In this document: piece by piece, positions 11,287 through 60,929 of the stretch | Numbering within the stretch: position 1 is the first letter of the stretch | Layout: every line of letters starts with the position of its first letter | Sequence record: OZ035790.1 | DNA from: Felixounavirus LF110P4 | DNA length: 64,000 bases | Direction: 5' to 3' (one strand) | Made by a program: the position numbers and the translations under genes | The notes under the pieces: model-generated | What the model was told of the DNA's origin: nothing | Seen by the model: only the letters and a program-made list of their open reading frames with translations | The model's database searches: none

Positions 11287-19305
<8,019 letters not shown>

Positions 19306-26204: not shown

Positions 26205-26504
26205 TTAATCTGCCAACCTTAAATTGAAATTAACACCAAATTTTTCACATACTTCCAACATATACTCAAGGGAGACGTTACCAGTGAGATGGATTATGTT
26301 GGATACACGAGCCTGAGAGATACCACAAATTTTAGCAACTTGCTCTTGAGAAAGACCTCTGGATTTAATCTCTCTCTTAAAACGATGTGCAACGAAGTCT
26401 CTCATTTCGTCTACATCCATTGGACAAATATAACTCTCCATTTCAGCCTCTCTATCAGCCTCCCAATCATCTTGTGGGGCATAAGGGTCAAAAACCTCAT
26501 TCAT
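26205..26504 (-). CDS. XRE-type helix-turn-helix protein
   Basis: HTH-like segment GLSQEQVAKICGISQARVSNIIH; likely ATG at 26504 with ggaag RBS (track ORF extends to 26534). Confidence 0.5.
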   Translation of the reverse strand: MNEVFDPYAPQDDWEADREAEMESYICPMDVDEMRDFVAHRFKREIKSRGLSQEQVAKICGISQARVSNIIHLTGNVSLEYMLEVCEKFGVNFNLRLAD

Positions 26505-31394: not shown

Positions 31395-31445
31395 AAGCCC
31401 TCCTATACAAGATACAGTATAAGGTACTCTTCCCTGAGCACCTTG

Positions 31446-31961
31446 TCAACTTAGTTTTGCAAACTCTCCGTGGAGTTTCACAGCAGCTTCACAGTAAGCT
31501 TTATGGGCTTCTTCTTCCGTTGTGTATGTCCCTATATGTATAGTCTTGCCATTATGGTTAATCTGGGCTATCCACTTACCAGACTTGCTTCTACTTGTGC
31601 CTTTTAAGTTTTTTGATGTTCTAGGTTGTCTCCTGTTAGACATGTTCTGTTCTTTTGTGGCCTCTCTTAGATTGTCCCAAGCATTATTCAAACCATCTCC
31701 ATCTTTGTGGTCAATATGTTTATCAGGCCACTTACCTGTCATCCAGAACCAAGCAATTCGGTGATTACCTGTCCTGTACCCTAAAATCTGTGTGTGCATA
31801 TACACACCAGACCTTGTGCGCTTAATTGCTCCAGCTTGGCTTCCAATAACCACCCTACTACTATGTGGAGGTCTGCCAATCCATGTTAAGACCCCTGTTT
31901 CGGGGTCATAATCTAACCAAGACTTTAACTGTTCATGTGTGAATCCACAATCTCTCATCAA
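31446..31961 (-). CDS. HNH homing endonuclease with AP2 DNA-binding domain
   Basis: HNH_3-like IDHKDGDGLNNAWDNLR plus AP2-like GTSRSKSGKWIAQINHNGKTIHIGTYTTEEEA; overlaps DNA polymerase gene by 4 nt. Confidence 0.8.
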   Translation of the reverse strand: MMRDCGFTHEQLKSWLDYDPETGVLTWIGRPPHSSRVVIGSQAGAIKRTRSGVYMHTQILGYRTGNHRIAWFWMTGKWPDKHIDHKDGDGLNNAWDNLREATKEQNMSNRRQPRTSKNLKGTSRSKSGKWIAQINHNGKTIHIGTYTTEEEAHKAYCEAAVKLHGEFAKLS

Positions 31962-34657
31962 TGCACCTCATACCAGCTCTTACCAACCTTACCTGTGCCA
32001 GTTACAAGTGTCTCACTCTTCAAACCTAAATTCTTAGATGCCTGACCATACATCCAGTCAGTTATGGCTTTAACTTCTTGAGTCATACTTTCTGGGCATT
32101 CCCAACTGTTTTCATCGTGGTATGCCAGCAAAAGCCTAGCACCAATTGCTGGTTTTCGTCCATTTAATTTTGTCAGTCCTTCTTCACATGCTCTTCTACA
32201 AGCAAGGTTAATTGCCTCATTTTGAATCTGAGCCTCCGAACCCATAAGCAAATAATTCAATAACTTATGTGGAGATTTGCACCACAACCAAGCTCCAGCA
32301 ACTTTTACAAAGCCCCCTTTAGAGATTGCAGCAGTCTTACCAAACACCTCTTCAAGTGCCTTTTTAGTTGCTTTGTAGTCAGCTTCCAAATCATCCAGCA
32401 ACTTCTTAATTTTAGGCAAACGGATAAAGTAAGTCTGCTTAGTCAGTGCACCTTCCTGAGTAGTTGCAGCTTTAATCGTCTTAGCAAACTTCTCATCACC
32501 TGCACCGAACAGCAGTGCATAGATACCGTTCTTAGCTTTCTTACGACCTTTGCTAATCTCATGAAGAAGGTTCTCATCCTGAGTAGCTCGACAAGTCAAG
32601 ATGTCCTGCTCATCGTTCAAGCTAAAGTAAATACTGTTCAGTGTATGTGCATCAGTCCCTGAATAGACAACGTACAGGTCATTCTCAGAGTCATAGCGAA
32701 GGTACTTATCAATCTCTGGGTTGAGGTACTCATCAAAGTGTTTGCAGTAATAGCGTCTATCTTCTTGACGAATAAACTCAATCTCTTCTTTACCTTGCGT
32801 TACCGCTTTGGTGAAGTCTTTGTCACCCATAAAGTTACAAAGGAGGACTAGCTGGGCTGAGTTCATGTCTACAGAGACAACGTTAGTACCTTCTTCACAA
32901 ATCCACACTGCCCTCATTGGTTCCCCATAGACAGCAGCACCAGACGGTACGTTTACAATACCGTACTGTGTCATACGTCCAGTTGAAGTACCAAACACCA
33001 TTGCACCAGCACTAAGGCGACCATCTGGACGAATCTGGTTCAACCAACCTTTTTCATCATCCTTTGAGTTCTCAATAGTTCTGCGTCGGTGCATCAAAGT
33101 GTAGTATTTAGCAATCTTCTGTCCAAGCTCACCTTCAATCGTATCGTAAGATGATTCAGTAAGTTTTGGTGAAGTACGGATTAAGCAAGGCTCAAGCAAA
33201 TCTGTGTACTTCTTCACAGACCAGTTATGCTCAATGTACTGGACGCCTTCGTGTTCAACATAACTCAAACCACACCGCTCAACCATTTCCTGCCACTTAG
33301 GATGCTTTGTAATCATCTTTTTATTGTCTTTGAAACGACAAACTTTGACAGGGCGACCATCAGAGTCTTTCTTGTAGTTCCAGTCATCTGGAATCCAACC
33401 AACTGATTTCAAGTAGTCTTTAACAACTGCTACCTGAGTCATACGAGAAACTTCAAACTCAATTGGTGTATATGGTGCATCAATCAAACCTGTGTAGCGA
33501 CTTGACTCAAGTTCAAAGTGGTTAACAACGTGGCTGTTATAGTACTTCACAGTTTTGACTGTTTTTACTGGCTTCCAGTCTTTGCATTTCTTACCAATCT
33601 TTGCGTTCAACTCATTGCAAATTGCACGAGCATCCTTCATTGCTACAAAGCCTTCCTTGTACTCTTCACCAGTTACAGTGTTGGTTGGTGTATAGCAATT
33701 CCTTTTTTCAATGTTAAAAATCTTTGTAGTTGGCTTACCAAATGGTTTGATTTCGTATGTCTGCATCTCGCCATTACGTACCTGCTGACGATACTTTGTC
33801 TTAGGGTACTTGGTAATTCTTTTCAGTCCATCTGCATGACCAAATGTTTCAACATACTCATTCCAAGCTTTTGCAAACTCTTCTCCAGTGACTTTACCTT
33901 TGGTCTTAATAGTTGGAGGTAGATGCGGTTCAACTTCTGAAGCAAGTTCATTAGTCAACTTGTCAAGTTCCTTTACATGGAACTCCATAAGCTCTTTATC
34001 AGCTTTCCAACCATTGATAGCCTGTTGACTCATCCAGAAAGATGTTTCTTTAGCTCGCATGTAAGTTTCATAAGTGTCTATACCACACTTCTTAAGCTTG
34101 AGATACTCGTTATCAAGTGCCCGTTTAGTTTTGGCGTTAATACGGATATCTTCTACAACACGAGTGAAGATTTCTGCATTCCACACACCCCAATGCTCAA
34201 TCTCTGGCTTACGAACACCAACACGAGCACCCCATGCAGCCAAACCATGAGCACCTTTATAACCCTTTGGAGTTGGTCTATCCATCCACTGAACACGAGA
34301 CTGGATAAGAGAATCCTGAAAGTAATTACTCCACGGTTTACACTTTGGGTTATCAAAGTTCCATAAATCAGGTGCAATGTGATTAAAAACCCACCAGTCA
34401 TAACCGAGACCGTTATGGATGCAAAGACGTTTTGCCTTTAACGCAAATTCAACACCTTCACGTAAACCACCCTTAATGTACTTGGTATACTTGTGACCGA
34501 GGATAGGTTCATCTGTAAAGACCCATACAGGTGGCTCTTCATCGTCAGATTTATAGTCTGCGAAAGCCATTACGTGCACTTTAGTGAACTCAAGGAGTAA
34601 ACCATCAGTTTCTGTATCACCAACTAAATGTAAGTTTTTAAAATCTACGTTTTCCAT
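31958..34657 (-). CDS. DNA polymerase, family A, with 3'-5' exonuclease domain
   Basis: ExoI DTETDG; motif A DMNSAQL; motif B KNGIYALLFGAG; motif C YHDE; ATG at 34657 with agagggag RBS (track ORF extends to 34687). Confidence 0.9.
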   Translation of the reverse strand: MENVDFKNLHLVGDTETDGLLLEFTKVHVMAFADYKSDDEEPPVWVFTDEPILGHKYTKYIKGGLREGVEFALKAKRLCIHNGLGYDWWVFNHIAPDLWNFDNPKCKPWSNYFQDSLIQSRVQWMDRPTPKGYKGAHGLAAWGARVGVRKPEIEHWGVWNAEIFTRVVEDIRINAKTKRALDNEYLKLKKCGIDTYETYMRAKETSFWMSQQAINGWKADKELMEFHVKELDKLTNELASEVEPHLPPTIKTKGKVTGEEFAKAWNEYVETFGHADGLKRITKYPKTKYRQQVRNGEMQTYEIKPFGKPTTKIFNIEKRNCYTPTNTVTGEEYKEGFVAMKDARAICNELNAKIGKKCKDWKPVKTVKTVKYYNSHVVNHFELESSRYTGLIDAPYTPIEFEVSRMTQVAVVKDYLKSVGWIPDDWNYKKDSDGRPVKVCRFKDNKKMITKHPKWQEMVERCGLSYVEHEGVQYIEHNWSVKKYTDLLEPCLIRTSPKLTESSYDTIEGELGQKIAKYYTLMHRRRTIENSKDDEKGWLNQIRPDGRLSAGAMVFGTSTGRMTQYGIVNVPSGAAVYGEPMRAVWICEEGTNVVSVDMNSAQLVLLCNFMGDKDFTKAVTQGKEEIEFIRQEDRRYYCKHFDEYLNPEIDKYLRYDSENDLYVVYSGTDAHTLNSIYFSLNDEQDILTCRATQDENLLHEISKGRKKAKNGIYALLFGAGDEKFAKTIKAATTQEGALTKQTYFIRLPKIKKLLDDLEADYKATKKALEEVFGKTAAISKGGFVKVAGAWLWCKSPHKLLNYLLMGSEAQIQNEAINLACRRACEEGLTKLNGRKPAIGARLLLAYHDENSWECPESMTQEVKAITDWMYGQASKNLGLKSETLVTGTGKVGKSWYEVH

Positions 34658-34687
34658 TTTTACTCCCTCTAAAATCATTAACCTCAT

Positions 34688-34914
34688 ACATTACTGCAAA
34701 AAATTATAAAAAGCAAGTTGACAATGCACTTGACAAGGTGTTAATCTTTGCGAAGTGGGTTTTTACTTAAAAGGTTACTTAACAGTTTAACTATACAGAT
34801 ACTTTAAAACTCTTAAAAGATTATTTAATAGCTTTTAAAAAGCTTTAAAGTATAACGTATAGAATACGTTAAGATAAAAGATTAAAACTTAATAGTTACT
34901 TAAAAGAGGCTTAC
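34688..34914. promoter_or_regulatory. divergent control region between leftward and rightward gene blocks
   Basis: TTGACA boxes at 34718 and 34730 (+), minus-strand TATAAT at 34703-34708, repeated cttaaaag motifs, palindrome aacgtat-aga-atacgtt at ~34853-34869. Confidence 0.5.
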
Positions 34915-35337
34915 ATGCAGAAAATGTTTGTTCACCCAGACATAGCTGACTTTGTTAGAGCTTTGCAGAAGTTGGAAGAACTTGACATTGCTGCTCAACG
35001 GGAATATGCTCACCATCACAGGAGAATGGTTGATATACAACATGAAATAGAGTTGTCTGAAAACTATGAAGATGACTTAAAATGCTCTGTATTTGAGCAT
35101 ATGAAAGATGTTGCTACAGCAAGACGTAAAGCTAAAGACACAGTTGCTTTACTAGATTCTCTTAAAAAGAGGTTGCAAAGTGGTACAGACCTGTGTAATC
35201 TAGCGTCACTGATTAACGATGTTGAAACTTCTTGGGATAGGCACTATTATCCACGTTCTGAAAAGACACTTGACTTTTCTTCATCAGAAAACTTAAAATG
35301 TTCTAGAAAGAAACTTAACCAACTGAGAGAGAAATAA
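34915..35337 (+). CDS. hypothetical protein
   Basis: 140 aa ORF, first gene of rightward block. Confidence 0.4.
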   Translation: MQKMFVHPDIADFVRALQKLEELDIAAQREYAHHHRRMVDIQHEIELSENYEDDLKCSVFEHMKDVATARRKAKDTVALLDSLKKRLQSGTDLCNLASLINDVETSWDRHYYPRSEKTLDFSSSENLKCSRKKLNQLREK

Positions 35338-35338
35338 T

Positions 35339-36151
35339 ATGAATATCAATGTGGAACAGATGCTTGAAGAGAAAGGTGTTGATGAAGCATTCTTAATCAA
35401 TGCCGTAGAAAGCATGGCTATGATTCTTCGTGGAAATAACTACACAGAACAGTTTATGCCTGCAAGCTACAACTTACCTGAAGACAAGTCTGATAGTAGT
35501 GCTTTTGCAGAGCAGGTTAATATGATGCTGTGTGACAAAACGCTTGCTTTAGCATCTATCGTTGTAGGTGTCGATGCTCTTGCAGAGTTCATTTTTTATG
35601 AGATGCAGAAAAATGACTATATTGCCATGACATCTGAAGAAAAAGACTCGCTGCTGCTCTTAGATAATGATGAGCTAGTTGGCCTGTTAATTTCTTCAAC
35701 GAGTGCTGTTATGGCTGCTCTTGAGAAGCGTATGAATGAGAAGTTGTCACGGTATGAAAAACTTGATTGGGGCGTAGAAGAATTAAACCCACGAATCAAA
35801 GAGATTATCCAGCAAACCAAAGCTTCTTTGGAAGAAGCTGTGAAAGATGATTATGTAGCTGGCATAGAACCACTACAGGTGAAAGTTGCATTGATGATGC
35901 CAGCTATCTCTACGATGATGAATATCGTTGCATTAATCCAGCTTTCACAGATGATGGGTACAACCATCGAGTTCATTGAGAGTATGACTGGTGGTGTCAG
36001 TATGCAAGCAATCAATGATGTTTTGGTGAGCATTGGAGCTTCAATCATTGAAGAGAAACTGCGCATTAACTTTGGTGACGATTTTGTGAAGCAAATCGCA
36101 GCTATGGCTGAAAAAGAACACTCACAGATTACCACTGAACAACTGCACTGA
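35339..36151 (+). CDS. hypothetical protein
   Basis: 270 aa ORF, coupled to upstream gene. Confidence 0.4.
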   Translation: MNINVEQMLEEKGVDEAFLINAVESMAMILRGNNYTEQFMPASYNLPEDKSDSSAFAEQVNMMLCDKTLALASIVVGVDALAEFIFYEMQKNDYIAMTSEEKDSLLLLDNDELVGLLISSTSAVMAALEKRMNEKLSRYEKLDWGVEELNPRIKEIIQQTKASLEEAVKDDYVAGIEPLQVKVALMMPAISTMMNIVALIQLSQMMGTTIEFIESMTGGVSMQAINDVLVSIGASIIEEKLRINFGDDFVKQIAAMAEKEHSQITTEQLH

Positions 36152-50487: not shown

Positions 50488-51066
50488 ATGAATTACGAAC
50501 TAATATATAATGCAATTATTAAAAAGGCACATTCTGAAAGGGGTGTGCCTCTCACATACTACAAATGTCAAGGTAAGGGTTATGAAAGACACCATATCAT
50601 ACCAGTATGTCTAGGTGGCGATAAAATTAGTGGAGATAACATTGCTTTACTTACACCTAGAGAGCATTATATAGCTCATAAATTACTGGTTAAGATGTAT
50701 CCAAACAATCATAAGTTATGGTTTGCATGGAGCAGGTTAGCTCATGATGGCCTAGATAGGAAAATATCATCCAGAGACTATGAAAAGGTAAGGGCTTTAA
50801 ACTCGAAAGCTCTATCGATTGTGAATAAAGGTAGGGTTTTCACTGAAGAGCATCGAAGACGATTAGGAGAAGCTCAAATAGGTAATACAAAGTCAAAAGG
50901 TTGTAAAAGGTCTATGGAAACAAGGAAGAAGATGTCAGAAGCCGGAAAAAAGCCAAAGAAAAAGAAAACTTGCCCGCATTGTGGCATGACTGGTGGTGCT
51001 GGTAACATGACTCGATATCATTTTGACAATTGTAAGAAAAAAAAAATAACCTTATGTAAAACTTGA
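50488..51066 (+). CDS. HNH homing endonuclease with NUMOD-like repeats
   Basis: HNH motif RHHIIPVCLGGDKISGDNIALLTPREH; NUMOD3-like FTEEHRRRLGEAQIG and SMETRKKMSEAGKK; between nrdD and nrdG. Confidence 0.75.
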   Translation: MNYELIYNAIIKKAHSERGVPLTYYKCQGKGYERHHIIPVCLGGDKISGDNIALLTPREHYIAHKLLVKMYPNNHKLWFAWSRLAHDGLDRKISSRDYEKVRALNSKALSIVNKGRVFTEEHRRRLGEAQIGNTKSKGCKRSMETRKKMSEAGKKPKKKKTCPHCGMTGGAGNMTRYHFDNCKKKKITLCKT

Positions 51067-51121
51067 CAAGGTGGTGTGGGTCTTGATAGGCTTACATCAC
51101 CTTTTTATTTGGAGTTACATT

Positions 51122-54378: not shown

Positions 54379-55260
54379 ATGAAAACATCTATCCGTGTTA
54401 CAGTTCATTCACCAACTAAAGGAACTCATGAAGAAGAGTTTAACATCATCCAATTTCCTTCTGGTGAGATTGGTGGACACTTTTCGCCAGAGTTTGTTGA
54501 TTTCACTGCTTATGCAGCATCATCCATCAACAATGTGATTATGATTGTAAAAGGTTATGATAAGGACACTTTGTTTGCTGTGGCACTTGCTAAAGAAGCA
54601 ATTGATGATTTAATTCCTCATGATTATGCTTTAAAGACTGTCATCTTTTACTACTTACCAAATGCACGTTATGACCGTCACATGTTTAAAGGCGACGCAG
54701 CAGCTTTAAAGGTTTTTGCTAAACAGGTAAATGCAATGGGATTTGGTGCAGTCTGTGCAGTTGACCCTCACAGTTACGTTCCAGATAACCTGTTTAACTG
54801 CTTCCAGAGTATTCCTCAAAAGGAGATTGCAGTCCACTATGCAAATGACCCACTGGTTGATTACTTAGTAGCCCCAGATGCAGGTGCTGCTAAGAAGGTT
54901 GCAGAGACCGCTAAAGAGGTGGATAAACCATATATCACAATGTCTAAGGTGCGTAACCTTAAGACTGGTGAAATTACTGGTATGCGAATCCTTGATGATG
55001 TTGATTTGACAGATAAAACCGTCATGATTCTGGATGATATCTGTGATGGTGGTCGAACCTTCATAGAAGCAGCTAAGCATCTTCGTGAAGCAGGTGCAAA
55101 ACGTGTGGAACTCTATGTAACACATGGTATCTTCTCTAAAGATGTTGAAAACCTTCTTGACAATGGTATTGACCACATCTACACTACAAACTCTTTAGGG
55201 GAAGCTAAAGACCGTGGTTTAACACATTATGGTCAAGTTACTGTAGCAAATTTGGACTAG
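54379..55260 (+). CDS. prs: ribose-phosphate pyrophosphokinase-like protein (PRPP synthetase family; candidate NARP1 Adps)
   Basis: phosphoribosyltransferase PRPP-binding motif VMILDDICDGGRTF; ~294 aa; paired with NAMPT-like gene. Confidence 0.75.
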   Translation: MKTSIRVTVHSPTKGTHEEEFNIIQFPSGEIGGHFSPEFVDFTAYAASSINNVIMIVKGYDKDTLFAVALAKEAIDDLIPHDYALKTVIFYYLPNARYDRHMFKGDAAALKVFAKQVNAMGFGAVCAVDPHSYVPDNLFNCFQSIPQKEIAVHYANDPLVDYLVAPDAGAAKKVAETAKEVDKPYITMSKVRNLKTGEITGMRILDDVDLTDKTVMILDDICDGGRTFIEAAKHLREAGAKRVELYVTHGIFSKDVENLLDNGIDHIYTTNSLGEAKDRGLTHYGQVTVANLD

Positions 55261-60854: not shown

Positions 60855-60884
60855 TTTGACAAGGGGCTTCAAAGCCCCTTAAAA
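60855..60884 (+). promoter_or_regulatory. candidate promoter whose spacer is a stable hairpin (TTGACA-hairpin-TAAAAT)
   Basis: ttgaca 60855-60860; aaggggcttcaaagcccctt hairpin; taaaat; upstream of rIIB-like gene. Confidence 0.35.
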
Positions 60885-60929
60885 TAGCATCACAAAATGA
60901 TTTATTAACTAACAAGAGAGAGTAATAAG

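Follow-up and report, generated by a model that had tools for sequence, protein, structure and literature searches.

A candidate divergent early control region between the DNA polymerase gene and the gp97 operon of Felixounavirus LF110P4

The intergenic region and its conservation

The stretch of DNA analyzed here, 64,000 nucleotides of Felixounavirus LF110P4 (sequence record OZ035790.1; hereafter the window), holds a short intergenic gap between a leftward DNA polymerase gene and a rightward operon, in which we describe two predicted back-to-back promoters, a long AT-rich leader with phased repeats, and a perfect palindrome (Table 1). The window belongs to Felixounavirus and shares 97-99% identity with many Felix O1-like phages. 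A 1.8-kb query centred on these elements matched 257 phage records (with 95-99% identity in 205), nearly all being Felix O1-like phages of E. coli, Salmonella and Shigella (genus Felixounavirus, subfamily Ounavirinae). The same gap is found in the annotated relative ASO1A, where the operon to the right of it encodes, in this order, a 140-amino-acid (aa) hypothetical protein, a so-called 'minor tail protein', a deoxynucleoside monophosphate (dNMP) kinase and a primase/helicase. In Felix O1 numbering this is the gap between genes 96 and 97, where the authors of the Felix O1 genome paper assumed the presence of divergent early promoters and found no obvious promoter sequences; genes 96, 101 and 105 of that phage were transcribed within 5 min (PMC3185647).

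The longest open reading frame (ORF) of the polymerase opens at 34687, and an earlier note on this DNA had set the left limit of the gap at 34688, giving it a length of 227 bp. This boundary is wrong: Suspvirus and Mooglevirus lack the in-frame ATG at 34687, and the start in every annotated relative is the equivalent of 34657, an ATG with a strong RBS. Because the conserved polymerase start is the latter, the gap comprises positions 34658-34914, that is, 257 bp with a GC content of 26%, compared with 39% in the window.

Within Felixounavirus, 148 of 258 records show at least 99% identity over the gap and its near flanks. Between Felixounavirus and Suspvirus or Mooglevirus the identity of the gap is 0.82-0.875, while that of the third codon positions of the two flanking genes is 0.53-0.68; the gap being far more conserved than these positions, the whole of it is under purifying selection, which is strong in the leader.

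Table 1. Coordinates of the features of the gap and of the genes related to it, in positions of the window.
Feature	Position	Strand	Remarks
DNA polymerase start codon (ATG)	34655..34657	-	Ribosome-binding site (RBS) GAGGGAG at 34669..34663; equivalent start annotated in relatives
P_L, predicted promoter	34688..34716	-	-35 TTGCTT 34716..34711, N17, -10 TAATGT 34693..34688; predicted start ~34681
TATAAT on the minus strand (ATTATA on the plus strand)	34703..34708	-	Inside the P_L spacer
P1, predicted promoter	34718..34747	+	-35 TTGACA 34718-34723, N18, extended -10 TGT-TAATCT 34739-34747; predicted start ~34754
Second TTGACA	34730..34735	+	Within invariant CTTGACAAGGTG, inside the P1 spacer; no -10 partner
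AT-rich leader	34756..34905	.	20.7% GC; window-wide minimum of GC and of nearest-neighbour stability
Repeat unit U1	34766..34788	+	CTTAAAAG-GTTA-CTTAACAG-TTT; two TTAANAG boxes 12 bp apart
Repeat unit U2	34812..34834	+	CTTAAAAG-ATTA-TTTAATAG-CTT; 83% identical to U1
Pal-A, imperfect 26-bp dyad	34824..34849	.	TTTAA-T-AGCTTT-TAA-AAAGCT-TTAAA
Pal-B, perfect 8-3-8 palindrome	34853..34871	.	TAACGTAT-AGA-ATACGTTA; centre holds the -10-like TAGAAT 34860-34865
Repeat unit U3	34888..34909	+	CTTAATAG-TTA-CTTAAAAG-AGG
First rightward gene, Felix O1 gp97 homologue (140 aa)	34915..35337	+	phrog_4039; function not assigned by PHROG
XRE-type helix-turn-helix (HTH) protein (98 aa), candidate regulator	26205..26504	-	Pfam HTH_3, E = 4.8e-10; PHROG 'transcriptional regulator'

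Back-to-back promoters

The single strong promoter site in the gap is P1, whose position weight matrix (PWM) score of 13.1 bits equals that of the other intergenic promoters of the phage. Its -35 and -10 hexamers are spaced within the 17±1 bp of sigma70 promoters, with an extended TGn, and the pattern TTGACA / TGn / TA(A/G)TCT is invariant across three genera (Felixounavirus, Suspvirus and Mooglevirus), its hexamers being kept while the spacer varies, with the caveat that the part of the spacer holding a second TTGACA box is also invariant. On the other strand, the hexamers of P_L (TTGCTT; TAnnGT) are invariant across the same genera and the 17-nt spacer between them is free to vary, so that this site, despite a weak score, has the spacing and the conservation of a sigma70 promoter. 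The -35 hexamers of both promoters stand back to back, 1 bp apart.

The arrangement extends to more distant members of the subfamily. Kolesnikvirus, Pectobacterium phage Arno162 and a metagenomic relative (L041) are too diverged from the window for reliable alignment and were compared by promoter architecture; in them a rightward promoter scoring 12.6-14.4 bits occupies the equivalent place. All lineages examined have a promoter of the form TTGAC(A/T)-N17/18-TAnnnT at 146-198 nt before the gp97 homologue, and in every Ounavirinae lineage examined the -35 of a leftward partner is found at 1-5 bp from the rightward -35.

At the level that sequence analysis allows, we regard it as established that P_L and P1 are a back-to-back pair of sigma70-type promoters, with start sites as predicted in Table 1. 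The comparison across genera, which yields one leftward and one rightward promoter, bears out the claim of the earlier note that this is a divergent control region, and leads to a different choice of elements within it. The minus-strand TATAAT proposed there is present, but it does not behave as a promoter element: it falls in the variable spacer of P_L, its best -35 candidate (GTGCAT at N15) scores 5.5 and is no proper partner, and its equivalent reads TGAAAC or TGAAGA in Suspvirus and Mooglevirus. Similarly, the two TTGACA boxes described as overlapping do both exist at 34718-34723 and 34730-34735 on the plus strand, but they do not overlap, their starts being 12 bp apart.

The second of these boxes has no usable -10, the hexamer at N17 being AAGTGG. 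It opens the 11-mer TTGACAAGGTG, which occurs three times in the window, at 34730-34740 (+), 51063-51073 (+) and 31449..31439 (-), and which at 51063 and 31449 constitutes the -35 region of good promoters (N17 TACCTT; N18 TAGGCT). Separately, the tandem -35 arrangement was also observed, its 12-bp spacing unchanged, in TTGACAATGGTATTGACC at 55157-55174 in coding DNA, where TACACT comes next at N17 (14.4 bits).

The AT-rich leader and its phased boxes

Some 160 nt of predicted leader separate P1 from the start codon at 34915, while the leader of P_L is about 24 nt long; the other promoters of the phage lie roughly 37-50 nt from their start codons. The stability of the P1 leader is -126 kcal/mol per 120 bp versus a mean of -154 for the window (standard deviation 5.5), which places it about 5 standard deviations off over the 64 kb. 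No stretch in a further 26 kb of a relative's genome is more AT-rich, since the lowest GC content of any 150 bp there is 24.7%.

Short boxes are repeated along this leader. The earlier note counted at least four copies of CTTAAAAG; there are three exact ones in the gap, at 34766, 34812 and 34899, the rest being near variants (CTTAACAG at 34778, CTTTAAAAC at 34802, CTTTAAAG at 34843 and CTTAATAG at 34888). When the whole window was searched the motif did prove to be overrepresented, with 16 copies versus 5.2 expected and none of 100 shuffles reaching 16, but only three of these are in the gap, the other 13 being mostly in coding DNA. A wider pattern, TT[AT]A[ACT]AG (TTWANAG), is present in seven copies of the same orientation in the 167-nt leader versus 0.8 expected (0 of 2000 shuffles), mostly 11-12 bp apart and mainly arranged as three 23-bp units of two boxes each (U1 to U3 in Table 1). 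The last box of U3 merges with the RBS of the first rightward gene (AAGAGG, 34904-34909). In eight relatives, including four that align unreliably with the window, the leader carries 4-8 copies of the pattern versus 0.25-0.9 expected, and within Felixounavirus the polymorphisms of the leader fall between the boxes and none within them.

We also considered whether the leader as a whole could form a structured RNA. This was set aside as doubtful, since folds of both strands gave z-scores of only -1.8 and -2.0; an Rfam scan of 34300-35300 returned only a chance match to a small nucleolar RNA (E = 0.71), and covariation was confined to the 8-bp hairpin of Pal-B (see below). The imperfect dyad Pal-A folds as RNA no better than shuffles (z = -0.5), and its sequence is nearly invariant, which makes covariation uninformative in its case.

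A palindrome with compensatory changes

Between Pal-A and U3 lies Pal-B, which the earlier note had described as a perfect palindrome of the form 7-3-7; it is indeed perfect, but one base longer in each arm. The centres of its arms are 11 bp apart, about one helical turn, as expected of a site for an HTH dimer. Four variants were found: TAACGTAT-AGA-ATACGTTA in Felixounavirus, TTACGTAT-AGA-ATACGTAA in one relative (L029), aTACGTAT-AGA-ATACGTAa in SUSP1/2 and two further loci (L033, L034), and TATGTAT-AAC-ATACATA in Mooglevirus. They differ by double changes on both arms that compensate each other, at position 5 (C:G to T:A) and at position 7 (A:T to T:A), so that 95% of the cells remain paired; the covariation score is 0.219, compared with 0.077 in shuffles (0 of 500) and with 0-0.057 when the partner was slid. 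As two compensated double changes keep the symmetry, the dyad symmetry itself is selected. In Arno162 and Kolesnikvirus the palindrome is degenerate. A metagenome scan with flank anchors for further variants gave, among the matches listed (120 loci), none that was homologous, the AT-rich pattern being matched by chance.

One reading of Pal-B, tentative and somewhat short of even odds, is that it may serve as an operator for a dimeric DNA-binding protein. It resembles the operators of Cro/CI-type (XRE) dimers in its perfect dyad symmetry over 19 bp, in the distance of 11 bp between its half-site centres and in its place over a -10-like hexamer, and the genomes that have it also carry an XRE gene; unlike in those systems, a single candidate site is found here, with none beside the regulator gene, and the recognition helix shows no co-variation with it.

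The compensatory changes fit a hairpin equally well, and we consider it nearly as likely that the palindrome acts as an RNA stem-loop in the P1 leader, at about +100 of the transcript and separated by 44 nt from the start codon, where it could affect the stability, processing or translation of the mRNA, possibly as a protein-bound hairpin; recognition of the DNA by a protein would then have no role. Both double substitutions are independent and keep the pairing while the sequence and the loop (AGA to AAC) drift, the element diverges faster than its surroundings, as is typical when only structure is constrained, and the isolated fold is better than shuffles (z = -3.4 to -2.2). However, the hairpin would be weak (-5.8 to -3.5 kcal/mol, the Mooglevirus change weakening it further) and lies outside the minimum-energy fold of the whole leader, no G-U intermediates were seen among the variants, and Arno162 and Kolesnikvirus retain the leader with the palindrome degenerate.

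Should Pal-B be an operator, the sole visible candidate for its binder is the XRE-type HTH protein, whose gene the earlier note had correctly located and which is confirmed by its Pfam match (Table 1); that this protein binds the palindrome seems to us doubtful rather than probable. The gene is present in the same three genera as the palindrome (Felixounavirus, Suspvirus and Mooglevirus only), and no such gene turned up in those Erwinia or Pectobacterium relatives that lack the palindrome. It lies inside an operon, 8 kb from the palindrome. An autoregulatory site was looked for upstream of the gene and discarded, the DNA there being coding and free of inverted repeats.

A related array at a convergent junction

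Outside the window, a second locus rich in similar boxes was detected in the close relative OZ035744.1 (68865-70532; L046 8866-10533), where a stretch of 1.6 kb holds no ORF of 50 aa or more. Its equivalent in ASO1A (MZ726791.1, ~14733-16270) is flanked by converging genes, each of which ends in a predicted terminator according to the annotation. The stretch is packed with boxes in a register of ~11 bp (CTTAACAG, CTTAACAA, CTAACAAG, CTTTTAAG and TGTTAAGA), with spacings that peak at 10-12, 20-23 and 31-33 bp, and it is 90-93% conserved in Felixounavirus. In its 1.67 kb, CTTAAAAG occurs nine times and CTTAACAG five times, and the density of CT[ACT]WW[ACT]A[AG] is 26/kb, versus 60/kb in the leader and 3.9/kb elsewhere. 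The equivalent junction of Kolesnikvirus Fifi318 (PQ051114.1 75767-77173; 1.4 kb) bears arrays of TCTTAACA/TGTTAAGA and of CTTCTAAG.

The helical-repeat spacing of the boxes, together with the position of the junction between the predicted terminators of converging genes, suggests that they act on DNA rather than on RNA. For the junction itself, an origin, a packaging signal and an architectural site are all conceivable. As to whether the array might be the site of the 608-bp terminal repeat, the record of UAB_Phi87 opens in a tRNA cluster and not in the array region.

A control region for the replication-gene module

As a whole, the gap at 34658-34914 is in our opinion best explained as a control region with divergent early promoters that serves the replication-gene module, a reading to which we would give a probability of roughly 55%. 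The host RNA polymerase with sigma70 would use both promoters: P_L would drive the polymerase operon to the left, and P1 would transcribe to the right, through the long leader, the gene of the gp97 homologue and then those of the dNMP kinase and the primase/helicase. The TTWANAG/CTTAAAAG boxes would act on DNA, either as a phased array for protein binding or bending or as intrinsically curved DNA, and the palindrome, placed over TAGAAT 50 nt before the start codon, would be an operator which modulates rightward expression after the early phase.

Known divergent sigma70 early promoters of bacteria and phages share with this pair the position on opposite strands, the adjoining -35 elements and canonical hexamers at N17/N18, here with an extended -10 on the rightward side; they differ from it in that P1 is followed by a conserved, repeat-rich leader of ~160 nt and has an extra invariant TTGACA box in its spacer. 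Felix O1-like phages are widely used in Salmonella typing, biocontrol and therapy, and the pair is located, subfamily-wide, in the very gap in which the Felix O1 genome paper found no promoters (PMC3185647). The elements now defined (two promoters, an additional -35 box that is invariant, the phased boxes and the palindrome with its compensatory changes) should be useful for transcript mapping, engineering and origin mapping; if it is true that the phased boxes and the 1.6-kb array bind one protein, they would represent a new regulatory or architectural system for the subfamily.

Several observations weigh against this interpretation or against parts of it. Regarding the promoters, the PWM score of P_L is only 7.5 bits and the minus strand has no high-scoring site; the second TTGACA box is invariant yet has no -10 partner; and the literature search found no Ounavirinae transcriptome, the start sites being predicted ones (the CRISPRi-ART paper on SUSP1 does not address the control region). 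Regarding the boxes, the expression for TTWANAG was written post hoc, with the region already seen, and the 8-mers are only partly common to both loci, TCTTAACA dominating the junction and being absent from the gap. Regarding the palindrome, one with 8-bp arms and a loop of 3-5 nt occurs in 7.4% of dinucleotide shuffles of the gap, hence Pal-B is not significant by itself and takes its weight from compensated conservation. By a hand count on the alignments, 7 of its 19 positions differ between Felixounavirus and Mooglevirus, a divergence faster than that of the rest of the gap, which would be unusual for a site bound by a protein that does not co-evolve with it. A search proposed by the earlier note also showed the site to be unique, with no second copy either in the window or in a further 26 kb of the genome of a close relative; the co-occurrence of palindrome and XRE gene amounts to a single clade; and the changes in the palindrome have no counterpart in the recognition helix, ISQ(A/S)RVSN.

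A further possibility, compatible with the promoters and in our view unlikely, is that the gap is a replication origin, in which transcription from P1 by the host polymerase would enter the least stable DNA and the boxes would be iterons for an initiator or architectural protein. The primary origin of T7 consists of promoters 1.1A/1.1B and an AT-rich stretch, and oriF and oriG of T4 combine a middle promoter with an unwinding element; in the same way a strong promoter with a tandem -35 box lies here directly upstream of the most easily melted DNA, close to the genes of a family A polymerase and a primase/helicase. The differences are that transcription would be by the host polymerase and that the phased short repeats and dyads look more iteron-like. 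Lambda ori and the origins of plasmids and of P1 contain iteron arrays, and like these the leader has short direct repeats in helical register beside an AT-rich stretch, with a larger related array elsewhere in the genome; unlike in these, the boxes are 7-8 bp long and degenerate, and neither an initiator gene nor DnaA boxes can be identified.

The leader is the stability minimum of the window, the conservation of the gap goes well beyond what two promoters need, and the strand switch between replication genes coincides with a change in the sign of the GC skew. The combination of an AT-rich element with a promoter, phased repeats and dyads is, however, necessary for an origin and not specific to it, and the skew has to be rejected as a marker because it follows gene orientation throughout the window. 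Moreover, the region has no DnaA or IHF sites and, for Fis, only look-alikes with 2 mismatches, no initiator is recognisable, the predicted fold of the adjacent gp97 is uninformative, the 1.6-kb array is at least as good a candidate, and a literature search for Ounavirinae replication origins found no experimental data. In an equally improbable extension of this idea, the gap would be the origin of the phage or one of two, and a factor common to the Ounavirinae would bind the CTTAAAAG/CTTAACAG boxes and coat the 1.6-kb array, coupling the expression of the replication genes to the array. As an observation in its own right, the GC skew flips at both strand switches, 24000 and 34700, which delimit a leftward block (24-34.7 kb) within otherwise rightward genes.

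A second rightward promoter, P2, may also be imagined over Pal-B, with TAGAAT (34860-34865) as its -10 and the upstream boxes, e.g. AGCTTTA 13 bp upstream, as sites for an activator in the manner of T4 MotA; we hold this to be improbable. A -10-like hexamer recurs at a similar place in all lineages, reading TATAAT in Kolesnikvirus, TAACAT in Mooglevirus and TAGAAT in the others (Felixounavirus, Suspvirus, Arno162 and L041). TAGAAT stands as far from the ATG as the other promoters of the phage do from theirs, and in Kolesnikvirus a strong proximal promoter is present 59 nt before the ATG. Yet P2 has no -35 (score 4.6), TAnnnT is common by chance at such AT content, the position of the nearest upstream box varies between lineages, and GCTTT[AT]-N11-14-TAnnnT does not recur upstream of other genes, hence there is no regulon. 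A T4-like middle or late promoter was discarded: the single MotA look-alike (AGCTTTA-N13-TAGAAT) lacks the TGCTT core, has no recurrence at other genes, and no T4 late motif (TATAAATA) was found.

Finally, that the repeats and the palindrome are functionless chance products of AT-rich spacer DNA, as the frequency of such palindromes among shuffles of the gap and the location of most CTTAAAAG copies of the window in coding DNA might suggest, is very improbable, and conservation contradicts it: between genera, identity is 82-87% in the gap and 53-68% at synonymous sites, the motif arrays recur in lineages too diverged for reliable alignment, and the palindrome has undergone compensatory changes.

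Neighbouring genes and related records

The gp97 family is found in Ounavirinae only, always directly downstream of the control region. The AlphaFold model of the protein is a helical hairpin (predicted local distance difference test, pLDDT, 72) which gave no informative structural matches when compared with PDB and BFVD by Foldseek. As a candidate binder of the region gp97 was set aside.

The next gene (35339-36151), located between those of gp97 and the dNMP kinase, is labelled 'minor tail protein' in PHROG (4251) and in GenBank relatives. This label looks doubtful, as the gene is part of the early operon of replication genes and matches nothing in Pfam.

On the left side, Kolesnikvirus has an inserted gene for an HNH endonuclease (L008 187-663; L010 185-661), which separates the polymerase gene from the divergent promoter region and replaces it as the first leftward gene.

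One record, OR850874.1 (Salmonella phage S.Kent 1-2-1, UNVERIFIED_ORG; L007/L045), encodes a Felixounavirus-type XRE protein, 99% identical to that of the window, and has a polymerase/gp97 gap of the Mooglevirus type (79% identical, with the Moogle-type palindrome); it may be either a natural recombinant or a chimeric assembly.

Another palindrome was observed in a promoter elsewhere in the window: at 60856-60885, TTGACA-N18-TAAAAT has as its spacer the perfect GC-rich palindrome AAGGGGCTT-CAAA-GCCCCTT (60861-60880).

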